From a virus (lineage: Duplodnaviria; Caudoviricetes): DNA of 56,805 bases. Below the pieces are notes generated by a model that was not told where the DNA came from, ran no database searches, and saw nothing but the letters and a program-made list of their open reading frames with translations. The position numbers and the translations under genes were made by a program. The stretch is from the IMG/VR virus record IMGVR_UViG_3300044615_000557, positions 1-56,805 of that record; one strand, given 5' to 3'. Position 1 is the first letter of the stretch. Each line of letters starts with the position of its first letter. Shown here one piece after another: positions 28,721 through 55,774 of the stretch.

Positions 28721-28750
28721 GATTTCATTCAAATATCAAGGACTACCTAA

Positions 28751-29764: not shown

Positions 29765-29781
29765 ACCAAACGGACATCACA

Positions 29782-30753
29782 ATGGAAAAGAATCAAGTTT
29801 TGAATGCATACAGAAAAATGTTTCTCCTTCGTCGCATGGAGGAGGACTTGGTAAAGTATTACTTCGACAACAAAGTGATGAGTTTTGTTCATTTCTATAT
29901 TGGACAAGAGGCAGTCGCAGTCGGAGTGTGTGAGAATCTTCTTCCCGAAGATAACGCATTCGGAAATCACCGTTCCCATGGACACTACCTAGCCAAAGGA
30001 GGAAGTCCCGAGAAGATGGTATCAGAACTTCTCGGAAAGATAACTGGATGTTGTAGGGGTAAGGGAGGGTCAATGCATATGATTGACCGATCCGTGAACT
30101 TCGTAGGTTCAACTCCCATTCTGGGAAGTGTCGGACCCATTTCTGCCGGATCAGCCCTGACACAAAAGTTGACTGGCTCCAAAAACATTACCGTATCGTT
30201 TATCGGAGATGGCGCATCCGAGGAGGGGGTGTCATACGAGACCATAAACTTCGCAGCACTTTTTAAGTTGCCTCTCCTACTTGTAATTGAGAACAACCTC
30301 TATTCAGTACAAAGTCGCTTGAAAGACAGAAGGGGAGAAAGACACGACACGGAAAGGATAGTGGAGGGAATTGGGGTGAGGTATTTCCGTGCGGATGGAA
30401 ATGATTTCTTTGATGTCTATGAGAAAGCAAAAGAAGCAATCCGTAATATCAAAGAGAATGGAGAGCCGTCCGTTCTGGAGTGCGTAGTCTATCGTCACAT
30501 GGCTCACAGTGCTCCTATTTGTGATGACAAGGCGGGCTACAGAGAACAAGATGACAATCCAGAAAATAGAGTCAAGCATGATTCTGTTCTGAAGTTGAGA
30601 TCAGAACTCATCACAACTTATGAAGTACCCGAAAAAGATATTATGCGATTGGAGGATGAAGTCAATATCGTCTCATCCAATGCAATTCAGTTTGCTGTTC
30701 AATCAGATTATCCAGAGCAATCAGAGTTGATTAAGGATGTTTATCATGAGTAA
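29782..30753 (+). CDS. TPP-dependent dehydrogenase E1 alpha-like subunit
   Basis: GQEA, HRSHGH, GKGGSMH, GDGA...ENN TPP motif, YRHMAHS. Confidence 0.9.
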   Translation: MEKNQVLNAYRKMFLLRRMEEDLVKYYFDNKVMSFVHFYIGQEAVAVGVCENLLPEDNAFGNHRSHGHYLAKGGSPEKMVSELLGKITGCCRGKGGSMHMIDRSVNFVGSTPILGSVGPISAGSALTQKLTGSKNITVSFIGDGASEEGVSYETINFAALFKLPLLLVIENNLYSVQSRLKDRRGERHDTERIVEGIGVRYFRADGNDFFDVYEKAKEAIRNIKENGEPSVLECVVYRHMAHSAPICDDKAGYREQDDNPENRVKHDSVLKLRSELITTYEVPEKDIMRLEDEVNIVSSNAIQFAVQSDYPEQSELIKDVYHE

Positions 30754-31792
30754 ACTAATCTCTTTCACCGAAGCCATTAGGCAAGCCACCGAAGAATCTA
30801 TGGCGAGAGACCCATCCGTTATCGTCATGGGGTTGGGCGTTTCTTACAAGAATGGTGCGGATGGCACGATGGGCATCCTCAAAGAGCAGTATCCGAATAG
30901 AGTTTGGGATACTCCCGTATCAGAATTTTGCAACACCGGAGTTGGGGTTGGTGCCGCTGTGACAGGAATGAGGCCCATCATTCATCACGCAAGAGTGGAA
31001 TTTGGTCTATTTGCAATCGACCAGATTGTAACTCAAGCCGCCAAATGGAACTACATGTTCGGGGGCGGAAATCCGGTTCCGATTGTCTTCAGGCTTGCTG
31101 TGGGAAGACAGTGGGGTAATGGACCGCAACATACACAAGCACTTTACTCTCTATTCGGTAATGTACCCGGTCTGAAAGTCGTTATTCCTTCATCTCCCAA
31201 GACCGCTAAGGGATTGCTGAACTCGGCGGTCAGGGACAACAATCCCGTGGTTTACATGGAACCACGATGGCTGTATGGACTGAAAGAGGAGGTATCCAAT
31301 TTCTACTACGAAACTCCTCTTGACAAGGCCAGATACATCAGACGAGGCAATGACATCACAGTTGTAACTTACGGCGATGGCGTGGTGGATTCAATCAAAG
31401 CATATGATTTTCTTCTGACTAAAGGAATTCAATGTGAAATTATAGATTTAGTCAGTATCAATCCGATTGATTATGATACTGTCTATGAGTCTGTTAAAAA
31501 GACAGGTAGGCTTCTCTGTTTTGATACCACGAACGGTGTCTTTAATGTAGGAAGCGAAATCATTGCAAAGGTTTGTACTAACAGATTCTCTTCCCTGACG
31601 CAAAGACCTGAACAACTCAGTACTCCAAATACACCATGCCCAACATCAACATCACTGACTGAGATATACTACCCCACCCGAGTTGACATAATCAATCGAG
31701 TTCTCTCAATGCTCGGGAAGGATGGATATGACGAAAAGATGACCTTTGATGAGTTGCATTTATCCCCGAAGATCACCGTTGTGACCGAATAA
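30746..31792 (+). CDS. TPP-dependent dehydrogenase E1 beta-like subunit
   Basis: DTPVSE, GMRPI, GPQHTQ, PGLKVV.PS, SVKKTGRL motifs. Confidence 0.9.
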   Translation: MSKLISFTEAIRQATEESMARDPSVIVMGLGVSYKNGADGTMGILKEQYPNRVWDTPVSEFCNTGVGVGAAVTGMRPIIHHARVEFGLFAIDQIVTQAAKWNYMFGGGNPVPIVFRLAVGRQWGNGPQHTQALYSLFGNVPGLKVVIPSSPKTAKGLLNSAVRDNNPVVYMEPRWLYGLKEEVSNFYYETPLDKARYIRRGNDITVVTYGDGVVDSIKAYDFLLTKGIQCEIIDLVSINPIDYDTVYESVKKTGRLLCFDTTNGVFNVGSEIIAKVCTNRFSSLTQRPEQLSTPNTPCPTSTSLTEIYYPTRVDIINRVLSMLGKDGYDEKMTFDELHLSPKITVVTE

Positions 31793-31808
31793 AATTGGAG
31801 ATTGTGGC

Positions 31809-32537
31809 ATGAATAGCATTTTGGTAATTGGTGAAAGTTGTCGTGATGTGTTTGTCTATTGTGACGCAATTCGTCTTGCTCCAGACTATCCAGTTCCAAT
31901 CTTGAATATAGTGAACCAAGCGGAAAACCCCGGCATGGCTGCAAATGTTCATAGGAACATAGTGAAATACAAAGGTTGTGACCTATTCACCAACAACAAC
32001 TGGAAAGATATCACTAAGACACGATATGTGCATCAAAACACAAACCATATGTTCATAAGAGTCGATAGTCCGTCCAAGATTGCGGAGATATTGCTTGAGG
32101 ACTTGAATTTGGACTACGAACTGATCGTTATTTCGGATTACAACAAGGGATTTCTGTCCCAAAGGGATGTTGAATACATTTGTGATCATCATCCCTGTGT
32201 TTTTCTGGACACCAAGAAAGTTCTCGGTAAATGGGCTTCAAACGCCCGATACATTAAGATCAATGACTACGAATACAACAATTCAAAGTCATTTCTCACC
32301 CCAGAAATATCAAACAAAATAATCCACACCATGGGCGGAGATGGGTGTGAGTTTCAAGGAAAGATGTATCCCGTAGTCAACAAGGCGGAAGTGAAAGATA
32401 CCTCCGGTGCAGGAGATAGTTTTATGGCAGCACTCTGCATCAAGTTTCTGGAGACCAAGGACATTTATGAGTCAATCAAGTTTGCGAACTCCTGTGCCTC
32501 CGAGGTTGTAAGACACAGAGGAGTTACGACCATATGA
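31809..32537 (+). CDS. PfkB-family sugar kinase (HldE/RfaE kinase-like)
   Basis: PGMAANV, ISDYNKG, DTSGAGDSF motifs. Confidence 0.85.
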   Translation: MNSILVIGESCRDVFVYCDAIRLAPDYPVPILNIVNQAENPGMAANVHRNIVKYKGCDLFTNNNWKDITKTRYVHQNTNHMFIRVDSPSKIAEILLEDLNLDYELIVISDYNKGFLSQRDVEYICDHHPCVFLDTKKVLGKWASNARYIKINDYEYNNSKSFLTPEISNKIIHTMGGDGCEFQGKMYPVVNKAEVKDTSGAGDSFMAALCIKFLETKDIYESIKFANSCASEVVRHRGVTTI

Positions 32538-37566: not shown

Positions 37567-39009
37567 ATGACCGACAAGATTGAACTCGTCATCCTGCGCA
37601 GCCTGCTGCATCGGCAAGGCTACACCCGTCGCGTACTCCCGTTCCTCAAGGACGAGTACTTCCACGACAACTGCGAGAAGCGTCTCTTCAAGACCATCTC
37701 GGAGTTCATCGTCAAGTACGCGAACGCTCCCACCCGCGAGGCTCTGAACATCATCCTGAGCCAGCAGGAGGGTCTGTCGCAGGGGGAGTTTGACGAGTGC
37801 CTGCGTCTGGTGGACGGGCTGAACCCCGAGGAGGAGCCGGACGAGCAATGGCTGGTTGACCAGACCGAGAAGTTCTGCAAGGACAAGGCGGTCTACAACG
37901 CCCTGATGGAGTCCATTGAGTTGCTGGACGAGAAGCGGGCGAAGGGTCGGTCCAAGAACGCCATCCCCGAGATCCTCACCTCCGCCCTCAGCGTGTCCTT
38001 TGACCAGCACATCGGTCACGACTTCATTGAGGATGCCGAGCAGCGGTACGAGTTCTACCACCGCATTGAGAAGAAGACCTCGTTTGACCTTGACTACTTC
38101 AACCGCATCACCAACGGCGGTGTCCCCGACAAGACCCTGAATGTGGTCCTCGCGGGCACGGGAGTGGGCAAGTCCCTGTTCATGTGCCACCATGCCGCCA
38201 ACTGCCTGACCCAGAACAAGAATGTCCTCTACATCACCTGCGAGATGGCGGAGGAACGGATCGCGGAACGCATTGATGCCAATCTGATGGATGTCACCCT
38301 TGATGACCTGAAGCAGTTGCCTATCGACATCTACGGCAAGAAACTCGCCAAGTTGACCAAGAACATCACCGGCAAGTTGATCATCAAGGAGTACCCGACC
38401 GCCTCCGCCAGCGTGAACCACTTCCGCCACCTGATGGACGAGTTGCGGCTCAAGAAGAACTTCAAGCCCGATGTGGTGTTCATTGACTACCTGAACATCT
38501 GTGCCTCGTCCCGTTTCAAGCCGGGAGCCAATGTGAACTCGTACACCTACATCAAGGCGATTGCGGAGGAGTTGCGAGGCATGGCGGTGGAGATGGGGGT
38601 TCCCATCTTCACGGCGACCCAGACGAACCGCTCCGGCTTCGGGAACAGCGATGTGGAACTGACCGACACCTCCGAATCCTTCGGGTTGCCAGCCACAGCG
38701 GACTTCATGTTCGCCATCATCGCCACCGAGCAACTGGACGAGTTGGGGCAGGTCATGGTCAAGCAACTCAAGAACCGCTACAACGACACCGCCACCCACC
38801 GCAAGTTCGTCATCGGCATTGACCGGTCCAAGATGAAACTCTTTGATGTGGAGGAGAACATGCAGCAACTGGTGGCGGCACACAACCCGCTGGCAGAGGA
38901 CGAGGACGAGGAGAACCCCCCCGCACGCAGGGGCGCGTACGCACGCCCGCGGGCAGGCGGGCACGCGCGGGCGCACGAAGCCGACCGAAAATTCACCGAC
39001 TGGACTTGA
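37567..39009 (+). CDS. gp41: Replicative DnaB-like helicase
   Basis: AGTGVGKS, EMAEERIAERIDAN, IDYLNI, TSESFGLPATAD, KQLKNRY motifs. Confidence 0.96.
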   Translation: MTDKIELVILRSLLHRQGYTRRVLPFLKDEYFHDNCEKRLFKTISEFIVKYANAPTREALNIILSQQEGLSQGEFDECLRLVDGLNPEEEPDEQWLVDQTEKFCKDKAVYNALMESIELLDEKRAKGRSKNAIPEILTSALSVSFDQHIGHDFIEDAEQRYEFYHRIEKKTSFDLDYFNRITNGGVPDKTLNVVLAGTGVGKSLFMCHHAANCLTQNKNVLYITCEMAEERIAERIDANLMDVTLDDLKQLPIDIYGKKLAKLTKNITGKLIIKEYPTASASVNHFRHLMDELRLKKNFKPDVVFIDYLNICASSRFKPGANVNSYTYIKAIAEELRGMAVEMGVPIFTATQTNRSGFGNSDVELTDTSESFGLPATADFMFAIIATEQLDELGQVMVKQLKNRYNDTATHRKFVIGIDRSKMKLFDVEENMQQLVAAHNPLAEDEDEENPPARRGAYARPRAGGHARAHEADRKFTDWT

Positions 39010-39023
39010 GGAGAAATATCATT

Positions 39024-39932
39024 ATGAAATGCATGGTTACCGGCGGGGCAGGATTCATCGGTTCGCATCTGGTTCGTAAGTTGCTTGACGAGGGCAATCA
39101 TGTCGTGTGTGTGGACAACGAGAGTTCCGAGGGACACGAAACCTTCCGCTGGGATGATCGTGCCGACAACATAAAGTCAGACATCTGCGATTTGACGAGG
39201 GAAAACTTTCAGGATGTGGATGTCGTGTTCCACCTCGCTGCCGAGGTCAGCATCCAGCGGGCGATTGAGAACCCAGACAAGACATTTCGGACCAATGTCT
39301 TGGGAACCTATACCGTCCTCAAGAACGCTTCGGATGCGGGTGTCAAGAGGCTGGTATTCTCATCAACATCGGCCATCTATGGAAGCGGCGGAATGCACTA
39401 TGGCTCCCCGTTCAGAGAGGATACTCCCCCGAACTGCATGAACATCTACGCCACCACGAAACTCATGGGCGAGCAACTCTGCGACCACTTTGAGAAGTTC
39501 ACGAAGATGGGGGTGGTTACCCTCCGCTACTTCAATGTGTTCGGGGAAGGGCAGGCCAACAAGGGAACCTATTCGCCGGTGGTGGCGGTTTTTCAAAGAC
39601 AATTGTCAGAGGGACAACCCCTGACGGTAGTAGGTGATGGCTCACAGGTCAGGGACTACATCCATGTATCGGATGTCGTGATGGCGAACATGATGGTGTC
39701 AGACCTAAACCGAGGGTTCATAAAGGGGAGCAGGTACAACATCGGTTCCGGAAAGACATTCTCGGTGCTTGAAATCGCCCGTCGGGTCGGGGGAACCAAG
39801 GCGACCTTCCGGTTCCTTCCCGCCCGTATCGGAGAAGCCACCTTCACCTGTGCGGATTGCAGCAAGGCAACCAGAGACTTCGGGTGGAGACCCTCGGGGG
39901 GTCTGGAAAGGTGGATTCCTCGGGCAGACTGA
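39024..39932 (+). CDS. NAD-dependent nucleotide-sugar epimerase/dehydratase
   Basis: TGGAGFIGSH, YATTK, LRYFNVFG, RDYIHV motifs. Confidence 0.92.
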   Translation: MKCMVTGGAGFIGSHLVRKLLDEGNHVVCVDNESSEGHETFRWDDRADNIKSDICDLTRENFQDVDVVFHLAAEVSIQRAIENPDKTFRTNVLGTYTVLKNASDAGVKRLVFSSTSAIYGSGGMHYGSPFREDTPPNCMNIYATTKLMGEQLCDHFEKFTKMGVVTLRYFNVFGEGQANKGTYSPVVAVFQRQLSEGQPLTVVGDGSQVRDYIHVSDVVMANMMVSDLNRGFIKGSRYNIGSGKTFSVLEIARRVGGTKATFRFLPARIGEATFTCADCSKATRDFGWRPSGGLERWIPRAD

Positions 39933-39939: not shown

Positions 39940-40030
39940 GCACGCCTAGCATCTGGGTATGCAAACCGACTTATAAACGGTCTTAGCGGCAGATTACCGC
40001 GAGAGGTGGGTTCGATTCCCACGGCGTGTA
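39940..40030 (+). tRNA. tRNA-Ile(UAU) with long variable arm
   Basis: Acceptor GCACGCC/GGCGTGT-A; D stem GCAT/ATGC; anticodon loop CT TAT AA; V-arm GCGG...CCGC; T arm GTGGG-TTCGATT-CCCAC. Confidence 0.75.
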
Positions 40031-40033: not shown

Positions 40034-40040
40034 CTAAATA
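40034..40040 (+). promoter_or_regulatory. Late promoter CTAAATA
   Basis: 6 nt before ATG 40047. Confidence 0.65.
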
Positions 40041-40046: not shown

Positions 40047-41252
40047 ATGCTATCCTTCAACCAATACAATGCCTCCGACCTCAATGAAGAGGTGGTCCGA
40101 AACAAGCACCTAGACCACCTTGAGGACATGATGCTGCTCTACGGGGAGCAGGGGCTGAAGGACAGCATTGCCTTCCTGAAGGACATCGCAGTCAGCCTGA
40201 AGTTGGGCAAGTCCCCCGAACTGAAGTTCTCGACCAAGTGGGACGGCAAGCCCGCCGTGGTCTGCGGCATCAATCCCGACAACAAGAAGTTTTTCGTGGC
40301 GACCAAGAGTGCCTTCAGCAAGGTGGTCAAGGCGTACCACACCCCCAAGGAGGTCAAGGATGCCATCCCCATCGCCGACCTCGCCGACAAGTTGATCCAG
40401 TGCCTCAAGCACCTCCCCAAGATCGGCATCAAGGGTGTCCTACAGGGCGACCTCATGTTCGGGGAGGGGGCCAAGAAGATGGTCACCCTGAACGGGGTGG
40501 AACACATCGCCTTCCAGCCCAATACCATCATGTATGCCATCCCCGCCAAGAGCGAGATGGGGCAGCGGATCGCCAACGCCAAGTTGGGCATCGCGTTCCA
40601 CACCGAGTACGGCGGGAACAGCATGGAGAGCCTCTCCGCCAAGACCTTCAACTTTGACTCCACCAAGTTGAAGAAGAGTCCGGATGTCTGGTTCACCGAC
40701 CCCAACATCTACGACATCACCCCCGCCCTGCTCCAGCCGGGCGAGTACGACAACCTGTCCAAGATGATCGCGGAGTGCGAAGCCCTGTCCAAGAAGGTGC
40801 TGCCGTTCCTCAAGACCCTCAAGGCGAACGCCGACCTGATGGAGATCCTGATGCCCTACATCAACTCCACCATCGGAGGGGGCATGACCAACTACACCTC
40901 CAACGGTCTGAATCTCTATGTGACCACCCGCATGGACAAGGAAATAGAGAAACTGAAGAGCGAGAAGGGCAAGCAGAGCAGGGAGGCACAGAAGCAGAAA
41001 CTTCTGGACTTCGTCAAGACCTACTCCTCCCAGTTCGGGGACATGTTCACCCTCCACAACCGGCTGGCGAACTGCAAGGAGATCCTCCTCGGCAAGTTCA
41101 ACGCCATCGGGGCGTTCGGTCACTTCTTCGTTGATGACGAGGGTATCCGTCCGACCGACCCCGAGGGCATCGTGGTTTCCCGCAGCGGCAGGGTCGTGAA
41201 GTTGGTCAATCGCCTGCGTTTCAGCCGCCAGAACAGGAAGGTAAACCAATGA
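40047..41252 (+). CDS. Conserved T4-like protein (DUF6267-like) with ATP-dependent ligase-type motifs
   Basis: HLDHLED, TKWDG (KxDG motif I), QGDLMF, EGIVV, VKLV motifs. Confidence 0.75.
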   Translation: MLSFNQYNASDLNEEVVRNKHLDHLEDMMLLYGEQGLKDSIAFLKDIAVSLKLGKSPELKFSTKWDGKPAVVCGINPDNKKFFVATKSAFSKVVKAYHTPKEVKDAIPIADLADKLIQCLKHLPKIGIKGVLQGDLMFGEGAKKMVTLNGVEHIAFQPNTIMYAIPAKSEMGQRIANAKLGIAFHTEYGGNSMESLSAKTFNFDSTKLKKSPDVWFTDPNIYDITPALLQPGEYDNLSKMIAECEALSKKVLPFLKTLKANADLMEILMPYINSTIGGGMTNYTSNGLNLYVTTRMDKEIEKLKSEKGKQSREAQKQKLLDFVKTYSSQFGDMFTLHNRLANCKEILLGKFNAIGAFGHFFVDDEGIRPTDPEGIVVSRSGRVVKLVNRLRFSRQNRKVNQ

Positions 41253-44200
41253 TTGAAGGTTTCGCACGCCATCAGGAAACGCTCTCCGAGGCCAAGAAGG
41301 AGAATGTGGTCTTTGCTTTCGGACGCTTGAACCCCCCGACCACCGGACACGGCGTGCTGATAGACAAGATCATGTCCGAGGCCAGCAAGAGGAACGCGGA
41401 CCACTATGTCTTCGTCAGCAAGTCGCAGGATGCCAAGAAGAACCCCCTGACGCACGCCCAGAAGGTGATGTACCTCAAGCAGTTCTTTCCCAAGGGCAAG
41501 TTCCCCCTGAACCAAGCCAGAGACCCCTATGATGCCGTCCTGTGGCTCTGTGCCAAGGGCTACAAGAACATCACCATGGTCTGCGGCAGCGACCGAGTTG
41601 ACCAATTCAAGGGCATCGCGGGATACAAGGGCAAGGTCGCCCAGAAGGATCCCAAGCAGCGGACCTACTCGTTTGAGACCTTCAATGTGGTCGTGGCGGG
41701 CGAGGCACGCGACGACGAGGCACAGGGGGTGGCTGGCATGTCCGCCTCCAAGATGCGTGCTGCGGCGTTTGAGAGCGACTACAATGCGTTCAAGAAGGGC
41801 GTTCCCGGCGGCAACGAGGCTCTCAAGAAGGCACTCTACAAGGATGTCCGGAAGGGTATGGGTCTCTCCGAGCAATACATTCCCGAGGCCAACGGCAAGG
41901 ACAGCCAGAAGGTCACCATCCTCGCACTCACCTCGTCCGAAAAGGACTTGAGCGACAGCGTGGAGAAGATGGAGAATATCTGCAAGAAGCGTGGCATTGA
42001 GTTCTATGCGGTCAAGACCAGCAAGGCTCAGGTTCAGATTGATAATGTCGTATCTAAGAAGATCGTCATCAAGAACTACGACGGCGAGGGCAAGGACGCG
42101 ACCATCGTCCCCAGCGACACCGTCTGCATCGTGCGCGGGGGCGTGATGAACACCCAGACCGGCGTGGCGGTGCTGGACATCCTACAGAACAACGGCGTGT
42201 TCATGGTCAACGAGAAGGGTGGCATGGAACTCTGTGCCAACAAGTTGCAGACCGCCATCGCCCTGAAGAAGCACGGGTTGCCCCACCCCCGCACCGCGTT
42301 CGTGGTGAACGAGGCGAACATTGAGACAGCGGTCAAGGAGATTGGCGGGAAGTTCCCCGTCATCGCCAAGACTCTCACCGGTGCCGAGGGCATCGGCGTA
42401 TCCAAGATTGAGAGCATGGAGAGCCTGAAGTCCGTCCTCCAGACCCTGTGGAAGTTTGGGGCTGAGGTCATCATTCAGGAGTTCCTGCCCGACTTCAAGA
42501 ACGATGTCCGGAGCATCGTCCTCAACGGCAAGATCTTCGCCTGCGCGAAGCGAGACAAGGCACCCAAGGACTTCCGCACGAACATCGCACGCGGATCCAA
42601 GGGCGGCTCGCACCAGTTGAGCGAAGAGGAAGTGAAACTGGTTGAGCAGGCGGCAAGGGTCAGCAAGTGCTACTATGTCGGCATTGACCATGTCATCAAC
42701 GACGGAAAGCCTTACATCATTGAGATGAACGCCAGCCCCGGCAGCGGCAACATCTACTACCGCTACTACGACGAGGGCAAAGGCAAGGACAATGTGAAGG
42801 GCGAGGAGTTGATTGAGGACTTCCTTGACTACATCCTCAACAAGGCGCACTGGAAACTCTTCTCCAACCTTGCCGTCCGCGAGCCGGTCAAGATTGACGG
42901 CGTTGAATACACCGCCAAGGTGGACACCGGCAACAGCGGCTACAACATGATCCATGGCGACAAGATCAAGGACAACGGCGACCACACCGTGTCCTTCACG
43001 CTGCCGAACGGCAAGCGTATCACGAAGAAGATCGTCAGCCGCATCACGGTCAAGAGCGGCATCGGCGAGAAGACCCGCATGGTCGTGCTGATGGACATTG
43101 AGTTCCACGGAAAGAAGTTCACCAACATCAAGTTCAGCATCGGCGACCGCAGCCACATGAGCACGAAGGTTCTGCTCGGTCTACAGTTCCTCAGCAAGAC
43201 GGGGTTCACCGTGGACCCCGCCGAAGCCATCTATCCGCAGCCCGACAGCAACGCCAAGAGGCGCGGTGACGAGGAGGAGGAAGAGGAACTCAACGAGGAC
43301 ATGCCCATCGGGACGGCGGTCAAGGCACTCAAGGATGTGGCGATCAGCCCATTTGCGGTCACCAAGATCGCGACCCTAGCCAAGAAGCGAAAGGGCATGT
43401 CGGAAACGGAGTTCAAGCGTGAGGCGGATAAGGTCAAGAACGAGATCCTCATGAATGTCTACAAGACATCCGGATCCGCATTGACGCTCGGTCTGTTCAT
43501 GACACAGAGCAAGGTCGGAAAGTTGCTGGCGAAACTGCTTGACAAGTTGATCCTCAAGGTCATGGTTCATGATACCTCCATTGACCCCAGCGTCATCCTG
43601 AAGACCATCACCAGCACCCTGCTGTCCGCGGGAAGCGTTCTCGGGATGGGTGATGAGTTGGAAGGCGACCCCCTGATTGAGGCGGACCTTGAGTACAAGG
43701 GCAAAGAGATGAAGGGTCACCTCGACGGATTGCTGGCCAAAATCAAGAGCAAGCATGGAACCACGAATGTCACCTATAGCCAAGCGATGAAGACCGTCGG
43801 CTCAACTGGCGCAGCCAGACTCGCGGCAAGAGGCAAGATAAAGAGAGACGATGGGGAGAAGGAGAAAGGCGAACTGGGGAAGAGCGAGTCCATTGAAGAA
43901 GCAGATGTGACCAAGGGCAAGAAGTTCAAGACCAAGACCGGCAAGACCAAGGAGTCGCCGAAGCACAAGGCGACTGGACTGCCCAAGAAATATGTGTCCG
44001 GTCTCACCGGCAAGGATGCGGGTCTTCGTAAGAAGCGTCTCGCCGCCCGTGCCAAACTGCCGGACAGCGACCCCAAGGCATGGGAGTTCGTGAACCCCAA
44101 AGAGAAGGGCATCAAGACCAAGCCGTCCAAGTACAACAGCCTGTATGCGAAGTTGCAGAAACAAGGCAAGTTGAAGGCCATCAAGAGCCACTACGAGCAT

Positions 44201-45109
44201 GACGCGGCACTCCAACGACTGGTCAACATAGACGAGTCCGACCGGTCGGTTCAGCAGAAACTTTCCATCGCCGTATCGTATGCCGAGTCATGCAAGGAGA
44301 AGGGCATGAGCGAGGCGTGCGAACTGGTGCGTGCGTATGTGGACATGCTGAAGGACGAGCGTCAGTGGAGCGTGGAGGAGGATGTCAAGCCGACCGACAT
44401 CAACGAGGACTTCCAGTATCTCATGCTGGAGGTCAGCCCGCCATCCGGTCCTGCCCGTCGTTTCTCCAAGAAAGAGAAGATCAAGCGGCAGTTCCGAGAT
44501 CGCTACGGCAAGAGGTGGAAGGATGTCTTCTATGCCACGGCATGGAAGATGCACGGCAAGGAGTCCTACGAGCCGACCGAGGAGTGGCTGGAGGAGTCGC
44601 GGAAGATCAACACCATCCACAAGTGGACTGCTCTGGGCAAGAGAGGACCGCTGCTCATCGGCACGGACAAGATCGCCAACACCTACAAGTTTGACACGCC
44701 CGGTGAGCGGGAGCGTCTGAAGGAAGCAGAGGCGACCGCCGAGATTGATGACGAGAAGCGTTCCCTCTACAAGGAGTGGGAGAAGTTGGTGAACATGTCC
44801 GCCAAGGAACTCTCCGACTTCATTGACTCCGAGGAGGGCGAAGAAGCCGGTCTGTCCCGCAAGGAGGCAGGCAAGGCGGGAGCGGGCGGGAAGAAGATCA
44901 AGAGCGGTCGTGACTCTGCCAGAGCCATCGTCCGCATGCTGGAGCGTCCCATGGCCAAGTGGACCGATAACGACTGGGAGTGGGCTGGACGGCAGGTGAA
45001 CTTCATCAATCGCATGAAGGGAGCCGAGGGACCGACCAAGGACGAGAAGGGAAGACCCACCCGCAAGACCTTGGCCCTGAAGATATGGGGTCATGATCCG
45101 GAGAAATGA
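41249..45109 (+). CDS. Multidomain polyprotein: HxGH nucleotidyltransferase + RimK-like ATP-grasp ligase + RimB-like aspartic protease + DUF3140-like C-terminus
   Basis: FGRLNPPTTGH/GSDR/SASKMR; NKL..LPHPRT, G.EG.GV, IIQEF, FRTNIARG, IEMNASPG; AKVDTGN..DRSHM; LVNMSAKEL...WGHDP. Confidence 0.85.
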   Translation: MIEGFARHQETLSEAKKENVVFAFGRLNPPTTGHGVLIDKIMSEASKRNADHYVFVSKSQDAKKNPLTHAQKVMYLKQFFPKGKFPLNQARDPYDAVLWLCAKGYKNITMVCGSDRVDQFKGIAGYKGKVAQKDPKQRTYSFETFNVVVAGEARDDEAQGVAGMSASKMRAAAFESDYNAFKKGVPGGNEALKKALYKDVRKGMGLSEQYIPEANGKDSQKVTILALTSSEKDLSDSVEKMENICKKRGIEFYAVKTSKAQVQIDNVVSKKIVIKNYDGEGKDATIVPSDTVCIVRGGVMNTQTGVAVLDILQNNGVFMVNEKGGMELCANKLQTAIALKKHGLPHPRTAFVVNEANIETAVKEIGGKFPVIAKTLTGAEGIGVSKIESMESLKSVLQTLWKFGAEVIIQEFLPDFKNDVRSIVLNGKIFACAKRDKAPKDFRTNIARGSKGGSHQLSEEEVKLVEQAARVSKCYYVGIDHVINDGKPYIIEMNASPGSGNIYYRYYDEGKGKDNVKGEELIEDFLDYILNKAHWKLFSNLAVREPVKIDGVEYTAKVDTGNSGYNMIHGDKIKDNGDHTVSFTLPNGKRITKKIVSRITVKSGIGEKTRMVVLMDIEFHGKKFTNIKFSIGDRSHMSTKVLLGLQFLSKTGFTVDPAEAIYPQPDSNAKRRGDEEEEEELNEDMPIGTAVKALKDVAISPFAVTKIATLAKKRKGMSETEFKREADKVKNEILMNVYKTSGSALTLGLFMTQSKVGKLLAKLLDKLILKVMVHDTSIDPSVILKTITSTLLSAGSVLGMGDELEGDPLIEADLEYKGKEMKGHLDGLLAKIKSKHGTTNVTYSQAMKTVGSTGAARLAARGKIKRDDGEKEKGELGKSESIEEADVTKGKKFKTKTGKTKESPKHKATGLPKKYVSGLTGKDAGLRKKRLAARAKLPDSDPKAWEFVNPKEKGIKTKPSKYNSLYAKLQKQGKLKAIKSHYEHDAALQRLVNIDESDRSVQQKLSIAVSYAESCKEKGMSEACELVRAYVDMLKDERQWSVEEDVKPTDINEDFQYLMLEVSPPSGPARRFSKKEKIKRQFRDRYGKRWKDVFYATAWKMHGKESYEPTEEWLEESRKINTIHKWTALGKRGPLLIGTDKIANTYKFDTPGERERLKEAEATAEIDDEKRSLYKEWEKLVNMSAKELSDFIDSEEGEEAGLSRKEAGKAGAGGKKIKSGRDSARAIVRMLERPMAKWTDNDWEWAGRQVNFINRMKGAEGPTKDEKGRPTRKTLALKIWGHDPEK

Positions 45110-45110: not shown

Positions 45111-45371
45111 ATGAAGAGATTCAGTTCCCTGACGAAAGACATCACGGAGGCAAGGATCGCGGCTCTCGCCAAGAAGTCCAAGGAGAGCGGCATCCCCTAC
45201 GGCATTCTCAAGCAGGTGTATAACAGAGGCATGGCAGCATGGAAGGGCGGACACCGACCGGGTGCGAGCAGCCATGCATGGGCGTTCGCCCGCGTGAACT
45301 CCTTCATCGTCGGAGGCAAGACCAGAAAGACGGCGGATGCCGACTTGTGGAAGAAGGCGAAGGGCGGCTGA
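45111..45371 (+). CDS. DUF5824-like small protein
   Basis: SGIPYGILKQVYNRGMAAWKGGHRPGA...WAFARVNSF motif. Confidence 0.75.
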   Translation: MKRFSSLTKDITEARIAALAKKSKESGIPYGILKQVYNRGMAAWKGGHRPGASSHAWAFARVNSFIVGGKTRKTADADLWKKAKGG

Positions 45372-45409: not shown

Positions 45410-45850
45410 ATGTTTCACAATCCATTCAATAACAAGTTCGTCAAGGACATCCAGAACTTCCTGAACGAGCATCGCAACGATGTCACGATTGACCCCTGCC
45501 TCAACGACCACGCCAAGAAGGCGGCTCTATGGGTCGCCGAGGAGCCGCTTCTGGAAGAGCGTCGGACCATCCTGACTGCCCTGTTCAACGAGGCGGTCGC
45601 CGACTGCGGTTGTCGCGGAAACTCCAAGGACATCGCCGACTTCACGAAGGCGGTTGACCGCTATGTGGAAGAAGCCCATGCGGCTGTCGTTCCCGGCAAT
45701 AAGGTCAGCAACCCACCCCACGATAAGAACGAACTCGCCACTCCTGCTGCCGTAGCGGGAAAGACAGCGAAGCCCGTGTCAAAGGCGAACCTCGGCAAGA
45801 ACAGCGGCATCGCAAGTACAGGCAAGAATCCCCCGAAAATCGGTGGCTAA
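45410..45850 (+). CDS. Hypothetical late protein
   Basis: ATG 45410 with RBS; stop overlaps the next late promoter. Confidence 0.7.
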   Translation: MFHNPFNNKFVKDIQNFLNEHRNDVTIDPCLNDHAKKAALWVAEEPLLEERRTILTALFNEAVADCGCRGNSKDIADFTKAVDRYVEEAHAAVVPGNKVSNPPHDKNELATPAAVAGKTAKPVSKANLGKNSGIASTGKNPPKIGG

Positions 45851-46801: not shown

Positions 46802-47278
46802 ATGAAGAAGTTCAAGGAACTCAGACAACTCGTCAATGAAGCGACCGTGACCATCGGCTCGGGTGTTCGTGTCCAGCCCCTCGCGGGCGACAGCAACGCC
46901 CTTGACGGCGACATCAACCTTTCTTCCTTGACTCCTGCCGCGATCTCCCGCATCAACACCTACCTCGGTGCCATGGCGGCAAAGCCATACATCCATCCGA
47001 TGGAGGCACTCAAGAACGCAAAGGGTCGCCTCCAGATGATCGGTCTGGACTTCCAGATGGGCAAAGACTGCGAGATGCGTCTCAAGGAAGAGGAGGGTCA
47101 CTCCTTCCCTCTCGTCCGCTTCGGTGGGGTGTTTGGTTCGGATGGCACCGAGTATGGGACATCCTATGATGATGGCATCACTCCCAAGTTGGGACACGGA
47201 CTCGCCCTACATGTCCAGACCGCTGTGTTGCCCAACGGGATGACACAGGTTCAGGCACAGATCATACCGACCTCCTGA
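46802..47278 (+). CDS. Hypothetical protein with capsid-targeting-like N-terminus
   Basis: MKKFKELRQLVNE. Confidence 0.7.
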   Translation: MKKFKELRQLVNEATVTIGSGVRVQPLAGDSNALDGDINLSSLTPAAISRINTYLGAMAAKPYIHPMEALKNAKGRLQMIGLDFQMGKDCEMRLKEEEGHSFPLVRFGGVFGSDGTEYGTSYDDGITPKLGHGLALHVQTAVLPNGMTQVQAQIIPTS

Positions 47279-47294: not shown

Positions 47295-47660
47295 ATGACA
47301 GGCGAAAGCCTAACAGAAGAGAACTACATCAGGTATGCCATGAGGCACTACGACAACCCCCATTGCTTGGGGGTTTCGGAGTTTGAGGAAGACTTGTCCC
47401 GCACGATCTACCTCAAGAGGCTCTTTCGGAGATACCAGAAGGAGCGGGTTCTCCGTGACCGTCTCATCCTGAATCACATCATCACCTTCAACAATGTGTT
47501 CGGCGTGGAGGCAGCGAGGAAACTCTTGTTCTTCCGCATAGAATCCGACCTCCACTACATACTCAAGACCTTCTTGGTGTTCTTGGGATACCTGAAGGAC
47601 AGCGACATGACCGACATCGTAATGGACCAGCACATCATAGACCGGCTCAGGAGGATCTAA
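47295..47660 (+). CDS. Conserved T4-like hypothetical protein
   Basis: HYDNP.C...EF.EDL.R..YLKRL..RY...RLILNHII motif. Confidence 0.8.
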   Translation: MTGESLTEENYIRYAMRHYDNPHCLGVSEFEEDLSRTIYLKRLFRRYQKERVLRDRLILNHIITFNNVFGVEAARKLLFFRIESDLHYILKTFLVFLGYLKDSDMTDIVMDQHIIDRLRRI

Positions 47661-48727
47661 TGGCTGTACTCAAGAAATACGATCGTCAGTATCACGACCT
47701 GTACAAGTACAATCCGATGGTTTCTGCCGAACCGAAGTACGACGGCATTCCATTCGCAATCAACCCCGACTGCGAAGCCATCAAGGCAGGTCTGGACTTC
47801 AGCGGCTGTGTCGTTCGCAACCAGCGGTTCAACAACCGCTCATCTCCCAACAACTTTCCGGGCGTTGACTGGTACGACATCAACATGTGGAACAACGGCT
47901 ACTTCGCCGCTGTCCTCATCACCCCAAGACACGCACTGGTTTGTGAACATTACTACAAGACGGTGCCGTCACAGATTCATACGATGAAATGGCTCGGTCG
48001 CAGCGGAATTTTCCACTCGCGTGCCGTTGATAAGACCAAGCCGATGGGCAGCGACCTGCGACTGGTTGAGTTCAAGGAAGATTTCCCCTCGGATGTCAAG
48101 GTCTACAACAGGATCGCCGACATCCGATACATCCCCATCAACAGGGAGTTGTGGATACAGGACGCACAAAATCGCATCTACCGAGTTCTTCATGCGAGAA
48201 CCACCACCAACACGGGCAAACTTGACGGCGACCCGACGGGATGGTCTTCCAAGACATACCTTGATGGTCCGGAGGGATACAACCAAGGGTTCTACCAGTA
48301 CGGAAACTCCGCTGTAAATCCAAGCGTATTTCCAGGAGACAGCGGTTCTCCCACATTTGTGCTTGACGAAGGTGAGACAATTCTGGTCGGTCTCGCTTTC
48401 GGCGGATCGTTCATCAGCCCCAAGATGCTTGACTCCCTAAAATACGAAACCGGCAACAGATATCCGCTGGAACTCGTAAAGGTGTCCGCGAAGAAGTCCG
48501 ATGTCAATCAGGACGGCAGCGTTGATGCAGCCGATCTCGGTGAACTGTCTGGAGCATGGGGAACATCCAACCCCAAGTATGATCTCAACGGCGATGGCGT
48601 GGTTGACGCGATGGACATGACCATTCTACAGGCGGATTGGGGCTACTACGGATTGACGCACTCGGTCTACACACCGCCAGTCGCACCGCCTTTGCCGATC
48701 ACCCCACCGAAGGATGTCAAGCGATGA
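47660..48727 (+). CDS. Trypsin-like serine protease with C-terminal dockerin/EF-hand repeats
   Basis: AVLITPRHALVCEH, GDSGSP; DVNQDGSVDAADLG..GAWG and DLNGDGVVDAMD..ADWG. Confidence 0.75.
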   Translation: MAVLKKYDRQYHDLYKYNPMVSAEPKYDGIPFAINPDCEAIKAGLDFSGCVVRNQRFNNRSSPNNFPGVDWYDINMWNNGYFAAVLITPRHALVCEHYYKTVPSQIHTMKWLGRSGIFHSRAVDKTKPMGSDLRLVEFKEDFPSDVKVYNRIADIRYIPINRELWIQDAQNRIYRVLHARTTTNTGKLDGDPTGWSSKTYLDGPEGYNQGFYQYGNSAVNPSVFPGDSGSPTFVLDEGETILVGLAFGGSFISPKMLDSLKYETGNRYPLELVKVSAKKSDVNQDGSVDAADLGELSGAWGTSNPKYDLNGDGVVDAMDMTILQADWGYYGLTHSVYTPPVAPPLPITPPKDVKR

Positions 48728-52597: not shown

Positions 52598-55500
52598 ATG
52601 GCACATAGGTTTAACGAGTTCATCAATGCCCCCGATCCCAATGTTGAGTTCGCCCGCCTGAGCGAGGGTGTTCCCCATGGGACAAATATCATTCTTGTCC
52701 GACCCCTCATGGGACATGAGCCGGGCGATGTCTTCACATGCGCTCCCGCGAGCGCGTGCGCGGGCGCGAAGTGCTACACCTACAGGGGCATCGGGGAAGC
52801 ATACCTTCTTGACCCGAACGGCGAGCCGATCGTACTCAAGGGCGGACCGAACATCCTTGACGAGTCGTTCGTTCTTGAGAGCGATAGACCGAAACCCGAA
52901 CCCGTGGTTCAACGCAACGAGGTCATGCGACAGCCGGAACCCAAGCCCATCGTGGAAGCCCGTGTGACTCAGGGTCCAAGGGGAGAGAGGGGCGAGGACG
53001 GCATCCCCGGCATCCGTGGTCCCAAGGGTCCGAAGGGTGACAAGGGAGACGCAGGAGAGCGTGGACTACAGGGACCGCAGGGTGAACGGGGAGAGCAGGG
53101 ACCGCAGGGAGAGAAGGGTGATCGTGGACTCCAAGGACCGCCGGGAATACGCGGGGAAAGGGGCGAGCGTGGAGAGAAAGGCGAAGCCGGAGAGAAGGGG
53201 GAAAAGGGAGAGGCGGGACCACAGGGCATCCAAGGCGAGCGGGGACTTCAAGGACTCGCAGGGGAAAAGGGAGAGAAGGGTGAGAAAGGAGATTCCGGTC
53301 CACAGGGATCGCGGGGTGAAGCGGGTGCCCGAGGAGAAAGAGGAGAGAAGGGCGACAAGGGAGATGCCGGTGAAAGGGGAGAAGCCGGTCCCGCGGGACC
53401 ACAAGGGTCCGTTGGACCTGCGGGCAATGTGGGTCCGCAGGGCAAGGCAGGTCCGCGAGGAGCAAAGGGCGAGAAGGGCGAAAGAGGATCAGCGGGTCCG
53501 CAAGGAGAGCAGGGATCGGTAGGACCGGCTGGACCCGAAGGACCGCAGGGACCGAAGGGTGAGACCGGCGACAGCGGCATCGTCTCCGCCCAGTATCCCC
53601 TGAAGTATGACAAGGACAAAAAGCGTCTTTCCATTGACCTATCAAAGATAAAGCCGACAGGTGCGGCTGGCGGTCCCATTCTCTATGACGGCGGCGGCGG
53701 TCTCGGCGAGGCGTTCAAGTTCGTCTCGGTGTCGGGTCAATCGGGACTGACGGCGGTCCAGTATGACAAGGAGACGCTGACCTTCGTCGCGGGTTCCAAT
53801 GTCACTCTCACGACAAATCCCGACGCAAACTCAATCACCATCGCGAGTTCCGGTGGTGGTGGAGGAGGAGGACCGGGGTATTGGGGTTCATTCTGGTCAA
53901 CCGAGGACCAGATTGCCGCGACCGCCAACTACGAATACCTGATCACATACAACAACACGGATCCGGACTCGTCCGGTGTCGGCATCACCAACGGAAGCCA
54001 AGTCAAGTTCACGAACGCGGGCGTATACAGCATCATCTACTCCGTCCAGTTTGTCAATACCAGCAATCAGATTACAGATGCTAACATTTGGCTGAAGAAA
54101 AACGGAACCAATTTTCCAGACAGTGACAGCAAATGGAGCGTCGTATCAAGACATGGTAGTATTAATGGACATGCCATCGGAAGCGTCAACTATGTCCTGA
54201 AACTGAACGCAGGTGACTACCTTGAGTTGGCATGGCAAACTACAGACCCAAGCCTTTCGATTGAAGCACTTCCGGCAGAAGGTGTGGCACCGGCAATCCC
54301 CTCAATCATCCTGACGGCAACGCAGGTCGCAAACACTCTTGTGGGTGCGACGGGCAACACGGGACCGACAGGTGCTGCCGGTCCCACGGGCGCAAGAGGA
54401 ACGACCGGCAACGGAGTGACTGGATTTGCCGTCGTTGACAACTACCTCCGATACTGGTACATGGGTCCGACCGGAGCGACACTCGGCGAGTACCAGAACG
54501 CGGGGTATGTTGGTGGTGGTGGAGGCGGTGGAGGGATTGGACCCACAGGACCGACAGGACCGCAAGGCAACACGGGACCGACGGGACCACAAGGTCCGCA
54601 GGGAGACCCCGGTGTCGGCATTCAAGGAAACACGGGCAACACAGGACCAACAGGACCGCAGGGACCGATTGGTCCTACGGGTAACACCGGAGATACGGGA
54701 CCGCAAGGCAACACAGGATCAACTGGTAACACCGGAGATACGGGACCACAAGGACCGACAGGTAACACGGGACCGACAGGACCGCAGGGCAACACCGGAC
54801 CGACGGGACCGATGGGTTCCTTCACCGGCGACTATGTCTCGTCCATCAACGGCTTGACGGGAGCGATAACAGGAGTCGTTCGCTTCACCTCGTCCCTGAC
54901 GGCACCGACAGGGGTGAGCGTAGGACACAAGTGGTTTGACGAGGCATCCGGCACCGAGTTCACCTACATCTATGATGGCGACACATATCAGTGGGTGGAC
55001 ATCTCAGGTGGTGGAGGGAACGGAGGAACACAATCCACGGATCCGCTCTATCTGCTTGACCCCACGAAAGTCCAGTGGATTCATAGCATCTTCCCCGCAG
55101 GCACCGCAAACGGAATTCTTCCCTTCGCAGTAAGCACCAGCGGAACATATGTTGGCGGGAACATCGGAAACAACTTCTATAACACCGATGCCGCGAGTAT
55201 CAAGAGATACGGACAGGCGAGAATAACACAAACAGCAGCAAACTCCGTGACTGGAGCATCATATTTTCTGGGAACTCCGATGGCGAACATAAATCTGATG
55301 CTCGGAGTGACAGGAACTACATGTTCATTCCTCACGGGAACAAGAATGTCACACCAATCCACCGGATCGGCTCCATACCTTCTCAGAGCCGGTTTCATGG
55401 ACAATACATCCGGAGGAGGAGTGGTAGATGGTGCTTGGTTTGAATATACCCACACGGTCAACGGAGGAAGATGGTACTGCTATGCCAACAGAGGCAATGA

Positions 55501-55774
55501 GGTGACCGGCGGATTTGATACTGGTATCACTTTCGTCGGCAACACATGGTATGACCTCAAGGTCGTGGTGGGAAGAGATGCCAACAGCACTCCCATCGCA
55601 AGATACTACATCAACGGGACGAGTGTCGGTTCTTTGACCGATGGTTCTATTCCGGTAGGACTTCAACGAGACACTAGTGCGGGATGGATGAAGTATCGGA
55701 CAGGAACAGGTGCGGGATTGACAGCCGACCTTGACTACATGACCGTGATAATAGAAGGAGACATTTTGACATGA
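52598..55774 (+). CDS. Collagen-like fibre/virion appendage protein
   Basis: Long Gly-X-Y runs, a beta-sandwich middle domain and a lectin-like C-terminal domain. Confidence 0.85.
52972..53577 (+). repeat. Collagen (Gly-X-Y)n coding repeat, charged type
   Basis: GPQ/GER/GEK triplets. Confidence 0.85.
54531..54816 (+). repeat. Collagen (GPT/GNT/GPQ)n coding repeat
   Basis: Degenerate GGACCGACA/GGCAACACG 9-nt units. Confidence 0.85.

Follow-up and report, generated by a model that had tools for sequence, protein, structure and literature searches.

A 1286-residue phage polyprotein with a leader resembling the T4 capsid-targeting sequence, a RimK-RimB unit and a DUF3140 domain as a predicted packaged precursor of injected proteins

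Among the described systems closest to the locus reported here are the internal proteins of bacteriophage T4, where the first ten residues of IPIII form a capsid-targeting sequence (CTS) and the prohead protease gp21 cuts after L/I-X-E (PMC9026906). Targeting depends on CTS residues 4 and 7 and processing on residues 8 and 10, the CTS brings foreign proteins up to the size of beta-galactosidase into heads, and the injected enzyme Alt is trimmed at both ends (PMC9026906). On the enzymatic side, the protease RimB strips Glu from polyglutamylated ribosomal protein S6, cuts internal runs of at least six Glu and stimulates the poly-alpha-glutamate synthesis of the ligase RimK, and RimB-RimK hybrids occur in marine bacteria (PMC11957791). 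A putative phage RimK encoded next to regA, in some cases with a C-terminal DUF785 domain, was found in ocean metagenomes by Monier et al. in 2008, who proposed that it modifies host translation (PMC2530865). Here, we analyze a single open reading frame (ORF) of 1286 aa in a 56,805-nt stretch of viral DNA (positions 1 to 56,805 of IMG/VR record IMGVR_UViG_3300044615_000557; hereafter, the window), which we read, with a probability of roughly 60%, as encoding a late, CTS-targeted, gp21-processed and packaged precursor of injected proteins.

The contig (56.8 kb, GC 54%, almost all genes on the + strand) comes from a T4-like phage, since PHROG and Pfam scans identify a gp45 clamp, RegA, gp43 polymerase, UvsX, gp41 helicase and gp61 primase, together with a thymidylate synthase and a collagen-like tail fibre. 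The polyprotein runs from a leader through an HxGH-type nucleotidyltransferase, a RimK-family ATP-grasp ligase, a RimB-type retropepsin, a tract of six Glu (E6) and a series of basic helical modules to a C-terminal DUF3140 domain. Its parts are as follows, with a slash marking a predicted cut:

41249..45109, + strand: polyprotein ORF, 1286 aa, intact and single
41249..41290, + strand: N-terminal leader, aa 1-14, MIEGFARHQETLSE/A, resembling the T4 capsid-targeting sequence
41291..41887, + strand: HxGH-type nucleotidyltransferase, aa 15-213, ending at junction sites LSE208 / IPE213
41888..42883, + strand: RimK-family ATP-grasp alpha-L-glutamate ligase (TIGR00768), aa 214-545
42884..43228, + strand: RimB-type retropepsin (PF05618), aa 546-660, DTG at 559-561
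43271..43297, + strand: E6 tract, aa 675-680, followed by the LNE683/D junction (DEEEEEELNE)
43298..43681, + strand: module A, aa 684-811, helical and partly hydrophobic, AlphaFold2 (AF2) predicted local distance difference test (pLDDT) 67-84, ending LIE811/A
43682..43900, + strand: module B, aa 812-884, basic, 7.8 kDa, ending IEE884/A
43901..44407, + strand: module C, aa 885-1053, Lys-rich, pI 9.6, ending INE1053/D
44408..44596, + strand: module D, aa 1054-1116, ending LEE1116/S
44597..44725, + strand: module E, aa 1117-1159, ending LKE1159/A
44726..45106, + strand: module F, DUF3140 domain (PF11338), aa 1160-1286

Profile and motif searches confirmed what the preliminary description of this DNA had proposed, i.e., that one 1286-aa ORF fuses a nucleotidyltransferase, an ATP-grasp domain, a DTG protease, a poly-Glu tract, several modules and DUF3140. 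A script placed the diagnostic motifs at TTGH 31-34, GMSASKMR 163-170, TGAEGIGV 377-384, FRTN 442-445, EMNASPG 492-498, DTG 559-561, EEEEEE 675-680 and WGHDP 1280-1284, and likewise located all eight linker tripeptides named in that description: LSE (12-14 and 206-208), IPE (211-213), LNE (681-683), LIE (809-811), IEE (882-884), INE (1051-1053), LEE (1114-1116) and LKE (1157-1159).

The protein belongs to a conserved family, as the survey of related phages called for in the preliminary description demonstrated. Our word-index search found 135 proteins that match at E <= 0.001 among 8000 candidates scored, and the 120 matches listed share the architecture of the window protein, measure 710-1329 aa and come from contigs of up to 182 kb. 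In IMG/VR, 172 of 210 candidate stretches were confirmed; 80 of these 172 loci were kept and yielded 58 complete ORFs longer than 900 aa. The full-length proteins, 110 in all, were reduced to 38 representatives below 85% identity. A megablast search of the polyprotein gene against cultured phages gave no match, and searches of the Atlas gave nothing beyond the families of each query itself.

The leader is the first feature that ties the polyprotein to the T4 internal proteins. In the T4 record, IPII and IPIII start MKTYQEFIAE/A and IPI starts MKTFKEF...ITE/A; relatives of the window protein start MKNFAQHITE/A, VKRFTEIVAE/A or MKSFNQILSE/A, and the window leader has F5, L12, E14 and A15. Across 76 distinct leaders in the family, [LIVMF]xE falls within the first 18 residues in 71, Ala follows the putative cut (position P1') in 58, and the exact T4 spacing is present in 17. 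This pattern is specific to N-termini: across all + frames of the window, its exact T4-spacing form is found in only three places, all of them ORF starts. None of the nine replication or nucleotide-metabolism proteins that we checked has [LIV]xE[AGS] within its first 25 residues. The leader pattern is kept where the neighbouring sequence diverges, and residues 1-15 of the window protein are modelled with pLDDT below 50.

Sites of the same type recur between the domains. Outside the folded domains, conserved [LIVM]xE columns end at residues 14, 208, 213, 545, 683, 811, 884, 1053, 1061, 1116 and 1159. For example, E208 is present in all 38 representatives and E213 in 36, [LIVM]xE occupies the LNE683 column in 20 of 22 sequences that cover it and column 1159 in 31 of 35, and at column 884 it is found in 16 of 18, all 16 with Ala at P1'. 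Sites 14, 208 and 213 are in low-confidence stretches flanking the confidently modelled transferase domain (linker 207-219 has pLDDT below 50), and the seven conserved sites of the C-terminal half all lie within segments of pLDDT below 50, which make up 191 of its 626 residues, an arrangement whose chance is approximately 2e-4 by arithmetic that ignores relatedness. When nine linkers were compared with composition-preserving shuffles, the motif was present in 229 sequence-linker cases against 124.9 expected, with an excess in seven of the nine (for example, 32 against 10.0 in the leader and 30 against 10.5 in the linker between modules E and F), counts that are descriptive only since the sequences are related.

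In our judgment, the strongest argument for processing comes from stand-alone versions of the pieces, whose own leaders match the junctions within the precursor. The stand-alone RimK-RimB protein of Pelagibacter phage Mosig starts MQVQPFKNYLEE/A, and the corresponding precursor junction is QYIPE/A. P0204, a stand-alone module B of 81 aa present on 54 contigs, begins with MRTLRDYLTLIE/K and continues into the module, with PLIE/A as the precursor junction, and stand-alone DUF3140 proteins start MKTYTQLIVE/L (P0161), MKFFELINE/D (P0175) or MKLHELFE/A (P0195), with RLKE/A in the precursor. A fusion of an NT5C nucleotidase with DUF3140 (P0178) has both a leader and an LTE/A junction. The protease that would act on such sites, gp21-type Peptidase_S77 (PF03420), is encoded in two of three relatives' records, those that are 93% and 98% complete, and was not found in the third, which is 65% complete. 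In one near-complete relative (G002), gp21 lies within a T4-type head module alongside gp22, gp23 and gp55, and the N-terminus of gp23 reads ...YLKE/AAPTN where removal of the propeptide is expected.

The polyprotein gene is preceded by a partner gene and by a motif that suggests late expression:

40034..40040, + strand: CTAAATA motif upstream of the DUF6267-polyprotein pair
40047..41252, + strand: DUF6267 gene, 401 aa (PF19782, 310 bits), with a CTS-like leader MLSFNQYNASDLNE/E

The window holds 13 copies of CTAAATA, all on the + strand, against 1.0 expected, and they mostly sit 5-40 nt ahead of ORF starts, among them those of the tail-fibre gene and of DUF6267. In G002, which encodes a gp55-type late sigma factor, CTAAATA precedes the sheath, major capsid gp23 and tube genes, and TATAAATA and GATAAATA precede gp22 and the tube gene. 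Among 39 distinct locus contexts, 32 have TAAATA at most 60 nt upstream of the DUF6267 start, and several of the seven misses are start-codon miscalls. Based on these positions, and on the T4 late box TATAAAT (PMC3037559), we infer that CTAAATA is the late promoter of the operon. The exact T4 late box TATAAATA has a single copy in the window; CTAAATA emerged as the working motif. Four copies of CTAAATA (6323, 9800, 13150 and 40034) sit 5-12 nt before an ATG, so that transcripts from them would be almost without a leader and with no room for a Shine-Dalgarno sequence; near-leaderless late mRNAs may therefore exist in this phage.

Homologues of the cargo have been detected in virions. For the ‘cytidyltransferase’ T4-GC190, Table S8 of PMC3037559 marks detection, with 25 peptide counts, in its first proteome column, which we take to be S-SM1, and the ORF154 cytidylyltransferase was found in S-CREM2 virions by authors who note the ‘frequent detection’ of such enzymes in cyanophage virions (PMC10665884). 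The RimK-RimB homologue of Yersinia phage YerA41 is annotated ‘structural protein’, and the YerA41 gene table has a starred entry for a ‘ribosomal protein modification protein’ (PMC7354516). The preliminary description had proposed that the polyprotein is made late, is packaged in the capsid and is cut, with (L/I/V)xE linkers at its joins. All three ideas gain indirect support, i.e., from CTAAATA here and before the sheath, gp23 and tube genes of G002; from the CTS-like leader and the homologous enzymes in virions; and from conserved linker sites in excess of shuffles, the mosaic of modules, the leaders of the stand-alone pieces and gp21 in relatives. The promoter role, the packaging, the cleavage and the injection themselves are what we infer from this evidence.

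The first cargo domain is a member of the HxGH nucleotidyltransferase superfamily (CTP_transf_like clan), and a nucleotide-transfer enzyme had been claimed correctly from the sequence: its HxGH motifs lie on a Rossmann-like fold, and aa 14-224 match phrog_3041 (E 2e-54) and phrog_395 (2e-36), both annotated ‘cytidyltransferase’. Within TTGH 31-34 and SASKMR 165-170, residues G33, H34, S165, S167 and R170 are at least 90% conserved. There is no PF01467 match in Pfam at E <= 1, and a sequence search of the PDB gave nothing meaningful; the Atlas neighbours of the domain carry PF01467. Its AlphaFold model is confident (pLDDT 80-92), and the best VIA fold matches are PPAT 4nah (Z 12.8), NadM 2qjt (12.4), NaMNAT 5llt (12.2) and NMNAT 1f9a (11.7), with the top alignments (PPAT, NadM, NaMNAT) spanning 148-163 residues and the top adenylyltransferase rows tied at less than 1 Z unit apart. 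Cytidylyltransferases score lower (Z 8.9-9.8), and the lower-scoring rows include glycerol-3-phosphate and heptose nucleotidyltransferases. Judging by the model, the domain looks like a PPAT/NMNAT-like adenylyltransferase more than a cytidylyltransferase. An NMNAT-like activity would suit phage NAD-reconstitution pathways, which we mention as a lead only (10.1101/2024.02.11.579819, PMC13464706).

The ligase domain is a RimK-family member, with Pseudomonas and E. coli RimK as its nearest solved structures. It scores 152.6 bits with TIGR00768 (aa 237-498; cut-off 143.4) and 101.9 bits with PF08443 (aa 331-501; 4e-29; cut-off 21); phmmer against structures finds Pseudomonas RimK 7qyr at 1.6e-25 and 4iwx at 6.8e-20, and Foldseek, run on a low-confidence model, places RimK structures at all of ranks 1-22 (7qyr/7qys at approximately 1e-10, also 5zct, 5zk6 and 4iwx). 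The preliminary description had made intact ATP-grasp catalytic residues a point on which it could fail, and these are intact and conserved in 20 and 22 aligned sequences, where conservation is complete or no lower than 90% at K374, the TGAEGIGV loop, D419-R421, FRTN 442-445, D480 and E492-x-N494; the motifs align to FRSN and EVNSSPG of 7qyr. We take these to be the nucleotide- and Mg-binding residues, by the general pattern of ATP-grasp enzymes. The S6-ligase equivalog NF007764 gives 74.4 bits, well under its cut-off of 331, and we therefore class the domain as a RimK-family member, with S6 ligation at most a putative activity.

The retropepsin scores 31.5 bits with PF05618 (aa 551-660; cut-off 27) and resembles the DUF785 structure 2pma (VIA Z 8.1), and D559, T560 and G561 are invariant among the aligned sequences; it does not reach the RimB equivalog NF052261 (23.7 bits, cut-off 200). 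Exactly six Glu follow 15 residues past its end in the window protein, which is the minimal run published as cleavable by RimB. A run of at least six Glu is present in 17 of the 38 representatives and of at least five in 20, always 19-22 residues after the retropepsin, with no second such run anywhere in those proteins. Between ligase and protease, the VRE545 junction is kept in 33 of 38 representatives. We set it aside as a cleavage site since its P1' residue is never A, G or S (0 against 2.8 expected). PF05618 domains carry a conserved Glu near their N-terminus, and the Glu of VRE545 may belong to the protease fold. Of the writer/eraser pair that the preliminary description saw as being released, both members are therefore present, a RimK-family ligase and a RimB-type protease, and they would probably remain one fused fragment of approximately 52 kDa with an oligo-Glu tail, because P1' of VRE545 is never small.

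Downstream of the enzymes, the C-terminal 626 residues are predicted by AF2 to be helical modules (module pLDDT 60-88) with low-confidence stretches between them. Foldseek gave no match in the PDB at E <= 0.001 for the model of this C-terminal half, a null that says little about the folds since the modules are helical and modelled at such confidence, and a PDB sequence search with the C-terminal 599 residues gave nothing meaningful; across the transferase, C-terminal and DUF6267 queries, the meaningless matches were to an antibody, designer PPR repeats or cavin coiled coils, or there were none. Module A has a hydrophobic stretch at 780-800, and a sub-module of module C (GLPKKYVSGL...DPKAW) recurs in HTVC008M gp130 and in P0212. 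The small C-terminal fragments are basic (pI 9.2-10.1), as are the T4 internal proteins and as internal proteins that associate with DNA would be expected to be. The DUF3140 domain (aa 1176-1273; 35 bits with PF11338, cut-off 25) ends its highly conserved block with WGHDP. All 38 representatives have the nucleotidyltransferase, RimK and RimB, and 35 have DUF3140; module A occurs in 18 and module B in 3 plus 3 partial cases, and C1, D and E are variable. DUF3140 is also the C-terminus of otherwise unrelated phage proteins, i.e., NT5C nucleotidase, lipocalin and PF19141-containing proteins (metagenomic P0176-P0200), and occurs alone with a leader. It behaves like a transferable unit that perhaps binds DNA or the core; a literature search on DUF3140 found no papers.

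Taken together, these features suggest the following scheme. The 1286-aa precursor would be expressed late, and its T4-type leader would bring it into the prohead core, where a gp21-family prohead protease would cut after the Glu of (L/I/V/M)xE in flexible linkers. The products would be a 14-residue leader, a 22-kDa PPAT/NMNAT-like nucleotidyltransferase, a RimK-RimB hybrid of approximately 52 kDa ending ...DEEEEEELNE, five helical proteins that are small (5-19 kDa) and mostly basic (pI 9.2-10.1), and a 14-kDa DUF3140 protein. These would remain with the packaged DNA and enter the host alongside it, as T4 IPI-III and Alt do. Once in the cell, RimK-RimB might conceivably add and trim C-terminal oligo-Glu on a host protein such as S6, or make poly-alpha-glutamate, and the transferase might, just as tentatively, adenylylate a small phosphorylated substrate such as NMN. 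In a bolder version, which we regard as improbable, CTS leaders would load a whole enzyme kit (ligase-like DUF6267, the PPAT/NMNAT-like transferase, NT5C and RimK-RimB), and RimK-RimB would be self-primed: a gp21 cut after LNE683, a RimB cut within E675-680, or both, would leave an oligo-Glu C-terminus as in S6, other gp21 products would also end in Glu and be possible ligase substrates, and the ligase would polyglutamylate itself or co-packaged proteins, or make free poly-alpha-glutamate. If that were so, an injected polyanion or tunable tail would act, within seconds of the start of infection, on host ribosomes or on defence proteins that bind DNA.

Several observations weigh against the reading as a packaged, gp21-processed precursor. 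The lineage is uncultured and known from sequence alone, the contig holds no head module, so that gp21 is seen in relatives only, and the gene is flanked by those of the gp41 helicase and gp61 primase, which places it in a replication-gene region rather than among head genes. The window leader is a 14-residue variant whose residue 7 is not aromatic, unlike T4; 5 of the 76 family leaders are without any such site, and the poorly aligned linkers L4 and L5 are without clear enrichment (3 against 7.6 and 8 against 4.9). The ATP-grasp part of the structure model is poor, which makes pLDDT uninformative on the 545 junction. (L/I/V/M)xE is conserved to the same degree inside folded domains (at 44, 322, 364, 411, 466, 492 and 523), and for a motif this short, presence alone means little without the context tests above. 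T4-GC190 was not detected in the other two cyanophage proteomes of Table S8 (PMC3037559), the S-CREM2 authors warn that such virion enzymes may be contaminants (PMC10665884), the YerA41 particle list also contains polymerases, helicases and RNR (PMC7354516), and the stand-alone cyanophage RimK of S-RIM8 lacks a CTS-like leader. Much of this would suit a cytoplasmic multi-domain enzyme that is never packaged and acts intact, e.g., modifying ribosomal or other proteins of host or phage late in infection, with leader and sites coincidental or otherwise used: the gene sits among replication genes, the leaderless S-RIM8 RimK sits among auxiliary metabolic genes, the motif is short and present in folds too, and the transferase is missing from two of three virion proteomes (PMC3037559) and may be a contaminant where it was detected (PMC10665884). 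We consider this alternative unlikely, though one to be taken seriously, for the leader pattern is specific to the N-terminus and conserved amid divergent sequence, the sites coincide with predicted linkers and exceed shuffles, the modules occur as separate small proteins with leaders of their own, and more than 500 residues of exchangeable basic helical modules are not evidently needed by a stable enzyme.

Two further explanations start from the enzymes themselves. The protein's own RimB-type retropepsin could cut at E6, in cis or as a dimer and independently of the capsid, to free the enzyme half from the basic C-terminal half, possibly besides gp21. RimB is known to cut internal runs of at least six Glu (PMC11957791), DTG is invariant, and the sole run of at least five Glu lies at the same place in 20 of 38 representatives, with exactly six Glu 15 residues after the domain end in the window protein. 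However, 18 of 38 representatives are without a run of at least five Glu, yet most of them keep (L/I/V/M)xE there, the domain is divergent (23.7 bits against 200 with NF052261), and self-cleavage would account for one junction and not for the leader, the other sites or the stand-alone modules, so we hold it to be a long shot. Alternatively, the protein might be a biosynthetic enzyme for a nucleotide-sugar, a cofactor, or DNA or cell-surface modification, acting with the nearby epimerase and glycosyltransferases: its transferase would activate a phosphorylated small molecule, and its ligase would attach an amino acid to that molecule or to DNA. An NAD-dependent epimerase gene does lie 1.1 kb upstream (39006-39932), the window encodes a glycosyltransferase as well as dehydrogenases and methyltransferases, the nucleotidyltransferases for glycerol-3-phosphate and heptose are among the HxGH enzymes, and the thymidine of YerA41, a phage with a RimK-RimB homologue, is heavily modified (PMC9023294). 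Yet a tRNA gene and a promoter motif separate the epimerase from the operon, the epimerase is absent or elsewhere in many syntenic loci, the best folds are PPAT/NMNAT and not sugar-phosphate transferases, and the YerA41 modification is of oligosaccharide character (PMC9023294). The ligase, moreover, passes the RimK-family cut-off and is joined to a protease of the poly-Glu type, an arrangement that suggests a protein or a peptide as its substrate, and we regard a biosynthetic role as very improbable.

The gene order around the polyprotein is conserved: gp41 helicase, (epimerase), DUF6267, polyprotein, three small genes, DUF7207 and primase. Of the 80 loci listed, 78 have DUF6267 immediately 5' of the polyprotein, and two (L055 and L073) start inside the polyprotein gene; in the window, the stop codon of DUF6267 and the start codon of the polyprotein overlap as ATGA. 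In phrog_455, DUF6267 and the transferase domain are joined in one protein, and DUF6267 is homologous to Syn9 gp183 (E 4e-21), which precedes the transferase gp184. Among 17 DUF6267 sequences, K64-x-D66-G67, E373-G374 and K385 are invariant, and these residues resemble motifs I, IV and V of ATP-dependent ligases or capping enzymes. PDB searches with the DUF6267 sequence and with the 17-sequence profile found nothing, so the ligase-like reading remains a lead by eye. The T4 NrdC.11 ‘nucleotidyltransferase’, tried as a relative of DUF6267, is unrelated. Two of the genes downstream of the polyprotein also begin with leaders:

45111..45371, + strand: downstream small gene, leader MKRFSSLTKDITE/A, with a ‘RGMAAWKGGHRPG’ domain
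46802..47278, + strand: further cluster gene, leader MKKFKELRQLVNE/A, syntenic in related loci

The ‘RGMAAWKGGHRPG’ domain is also the C-terminus of the HTVC008M gp130 transferase fusion and of P0212.

Leader-like N-termini are found elsewhere in the window. An NT5C/HAD-type 5'(3')-deoxyribonucleotidase (9812-10363, phrog_2643) starts MRSFVQHLTE/T, an exact T4-spacing leader, just after CTAAATA, and is by its sequence a candidate for a second packaged enzyme. Many small or uncharacterised ORFs have CTS-like N-termini, e.g., MRSFRQFVCE, MRTFKQHMNE/A, MKRFSSLTKDITE/A and MKKFKELRQLVNE/A, most of them after TAAATA; examples are at 6335-6610, 6607-7068, 2233, 3264, 7273, 23533, 45111-45371, 45410-45850 and 46802-47278. 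This lineage may possess an extensive repertoire of internal proteins.

The window also contains a tmRNA gene (11239-11580, tag ANKQPYRLALAA) and seven tRNA genes (within 9320-9465, 9727-9800, 10365-10446, 12224-12372 and 39940-40030), of which a 91-nt tRNA-Ile(TAT) is directly 5' of the DUF6267-polyprotein operon. Several crude-call ORFs that overlap tmRNA or tRNA genes are probably spurious. At 47660-48727 is a 355-aa ORF with a dockerin/EF-hand-like Ca-binding repeat (PF00404, 4e-8), and at 52598-55774 a 1058-aa collagen-repeat tail-fibre gene with CTAAATA upstream. The regions 25912-32537 and 39006-39932 encode a glycosyltransferase, a Zn-dependent dehydrogenase, two phrog_34187 genes, phrog_8133 and the NAD-dependent epimerase, a cluster that may serve sugar or surface modification and whose tie to the polyprotein is proximity alone.

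If the polyprotein is a packaged and processed precursor, T4 capsid-targeting and gp21 processing would be a natural general delivery route for large, exchangeable enzyme sets in one precursor, which evolution reshuffles module by module. A writer/eraser for protein polyglutamylation, so far known only as a bacterial ribosome regulator, would be among the first phage proteins to enter the cell, and the cyanophage ‘cytidyltransferase’, DUF6267 and DUF3140 would gain a concrete function. The family is abundant in environmental viromes (172 confirmed IMG/VR loci) and has cultured relatives in Mosig, Syn9 and S-SM1.

The preliminary description knew of no described system of this form. This holds for the whole, as neither the full precursor nor its leader or processing model is described in the open-access literature that we searched; parts of it are in print, i.e., the RimK-DUF785 fusion (PMC2530865) and the virion ‘cytidyltransferase’ (PMC3037559, PMC10665884). 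The available text of PMC2530865 contains no packaging or processing model for phage RimK-DUF785, a search for ‘cytitidyltransferase’ with cyanophage found no literature, and the only RimK-related gene mentioned in the PaBG paper is a lysine-biosynthesis gene.

Compared with Pseudomonas RimK and RimB and the bacterial RimBK hybrids (PMC11957791), the polyprotein likewise joins a ligase to a PF05618 retropepsin with DTG and has an oligo-Glu tract; in the bacterial hybrid the protease comes first, whereas here the ligase does, and the phage unit is without RimA, far below the equivalog cut-offs and embedded in a leader-bearing precursor. The RimK-DUF785 protein of 2008, Mosig gp5 and YerA41 gp066 are the same ligase-protease fusion. 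The fusion is found in T4-like phage contigs by regA or replication genes, Mosig gp5 has a CTS-like leader, and YerA41 gp066 was found in particles (PMC7354516); all three differ from the polyprotein in being approximately 460-475 aa long, without the transferase, the basic modules or DUF3140. The cyanophage transferase T4-GC190 (Syn9 gp184, HTVC008M gp130) has approximately 40% identity to our domain and a DUF6267-like partner upstream (Syn9 gp183). Syn9 gp184 starts MKKFSAFLSE/A, HTVC008M gp130 has C-terminal modules common to the polyprotein and its downstream neighbour, and the transferase was detected in the virions of two cyanophages (PMC3037559, PMC10665884); in contrast to the polyprotein, it is without RimK-RimB or DUF3140, and it is annotated by similarity only.

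The giant phages phiKZ, 201phi2-1 and SPN3US are comparable in that a gp21-related protease cuts many head proteins after the Glu of a three-residue motif, with some precursors cut at several sites and their products ejected, and differ in the motif (S/A-X-E), the cargo and the genome context, being other phages altogether (PMC9026906). The likeness to T4 IPI-III and Alt extends from the leader (hydrophobic or aromatic at 4, L/I at 8, Glu 10, Ala 11) to the L/I-X-E motif for gp21, the small basic products, the gp21 homologue in relatives and an enzyme cargo, T4's Alt being injected and processed at both ends. Unlike the T4 internal proteins, which have one gene each, up to nine units are here encoded in one 1286-aa ORF with internal sites, the cargo (RimK-RimB, a PPAT/NMNAT-like transferase and DUF3140) is unrelated to that of T4, and packaging and cleavage are predicted from sequence. 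Read as we propose, the precursor is the T4 internal-protein and Alt theme with new cargo and a polyprotein layout.

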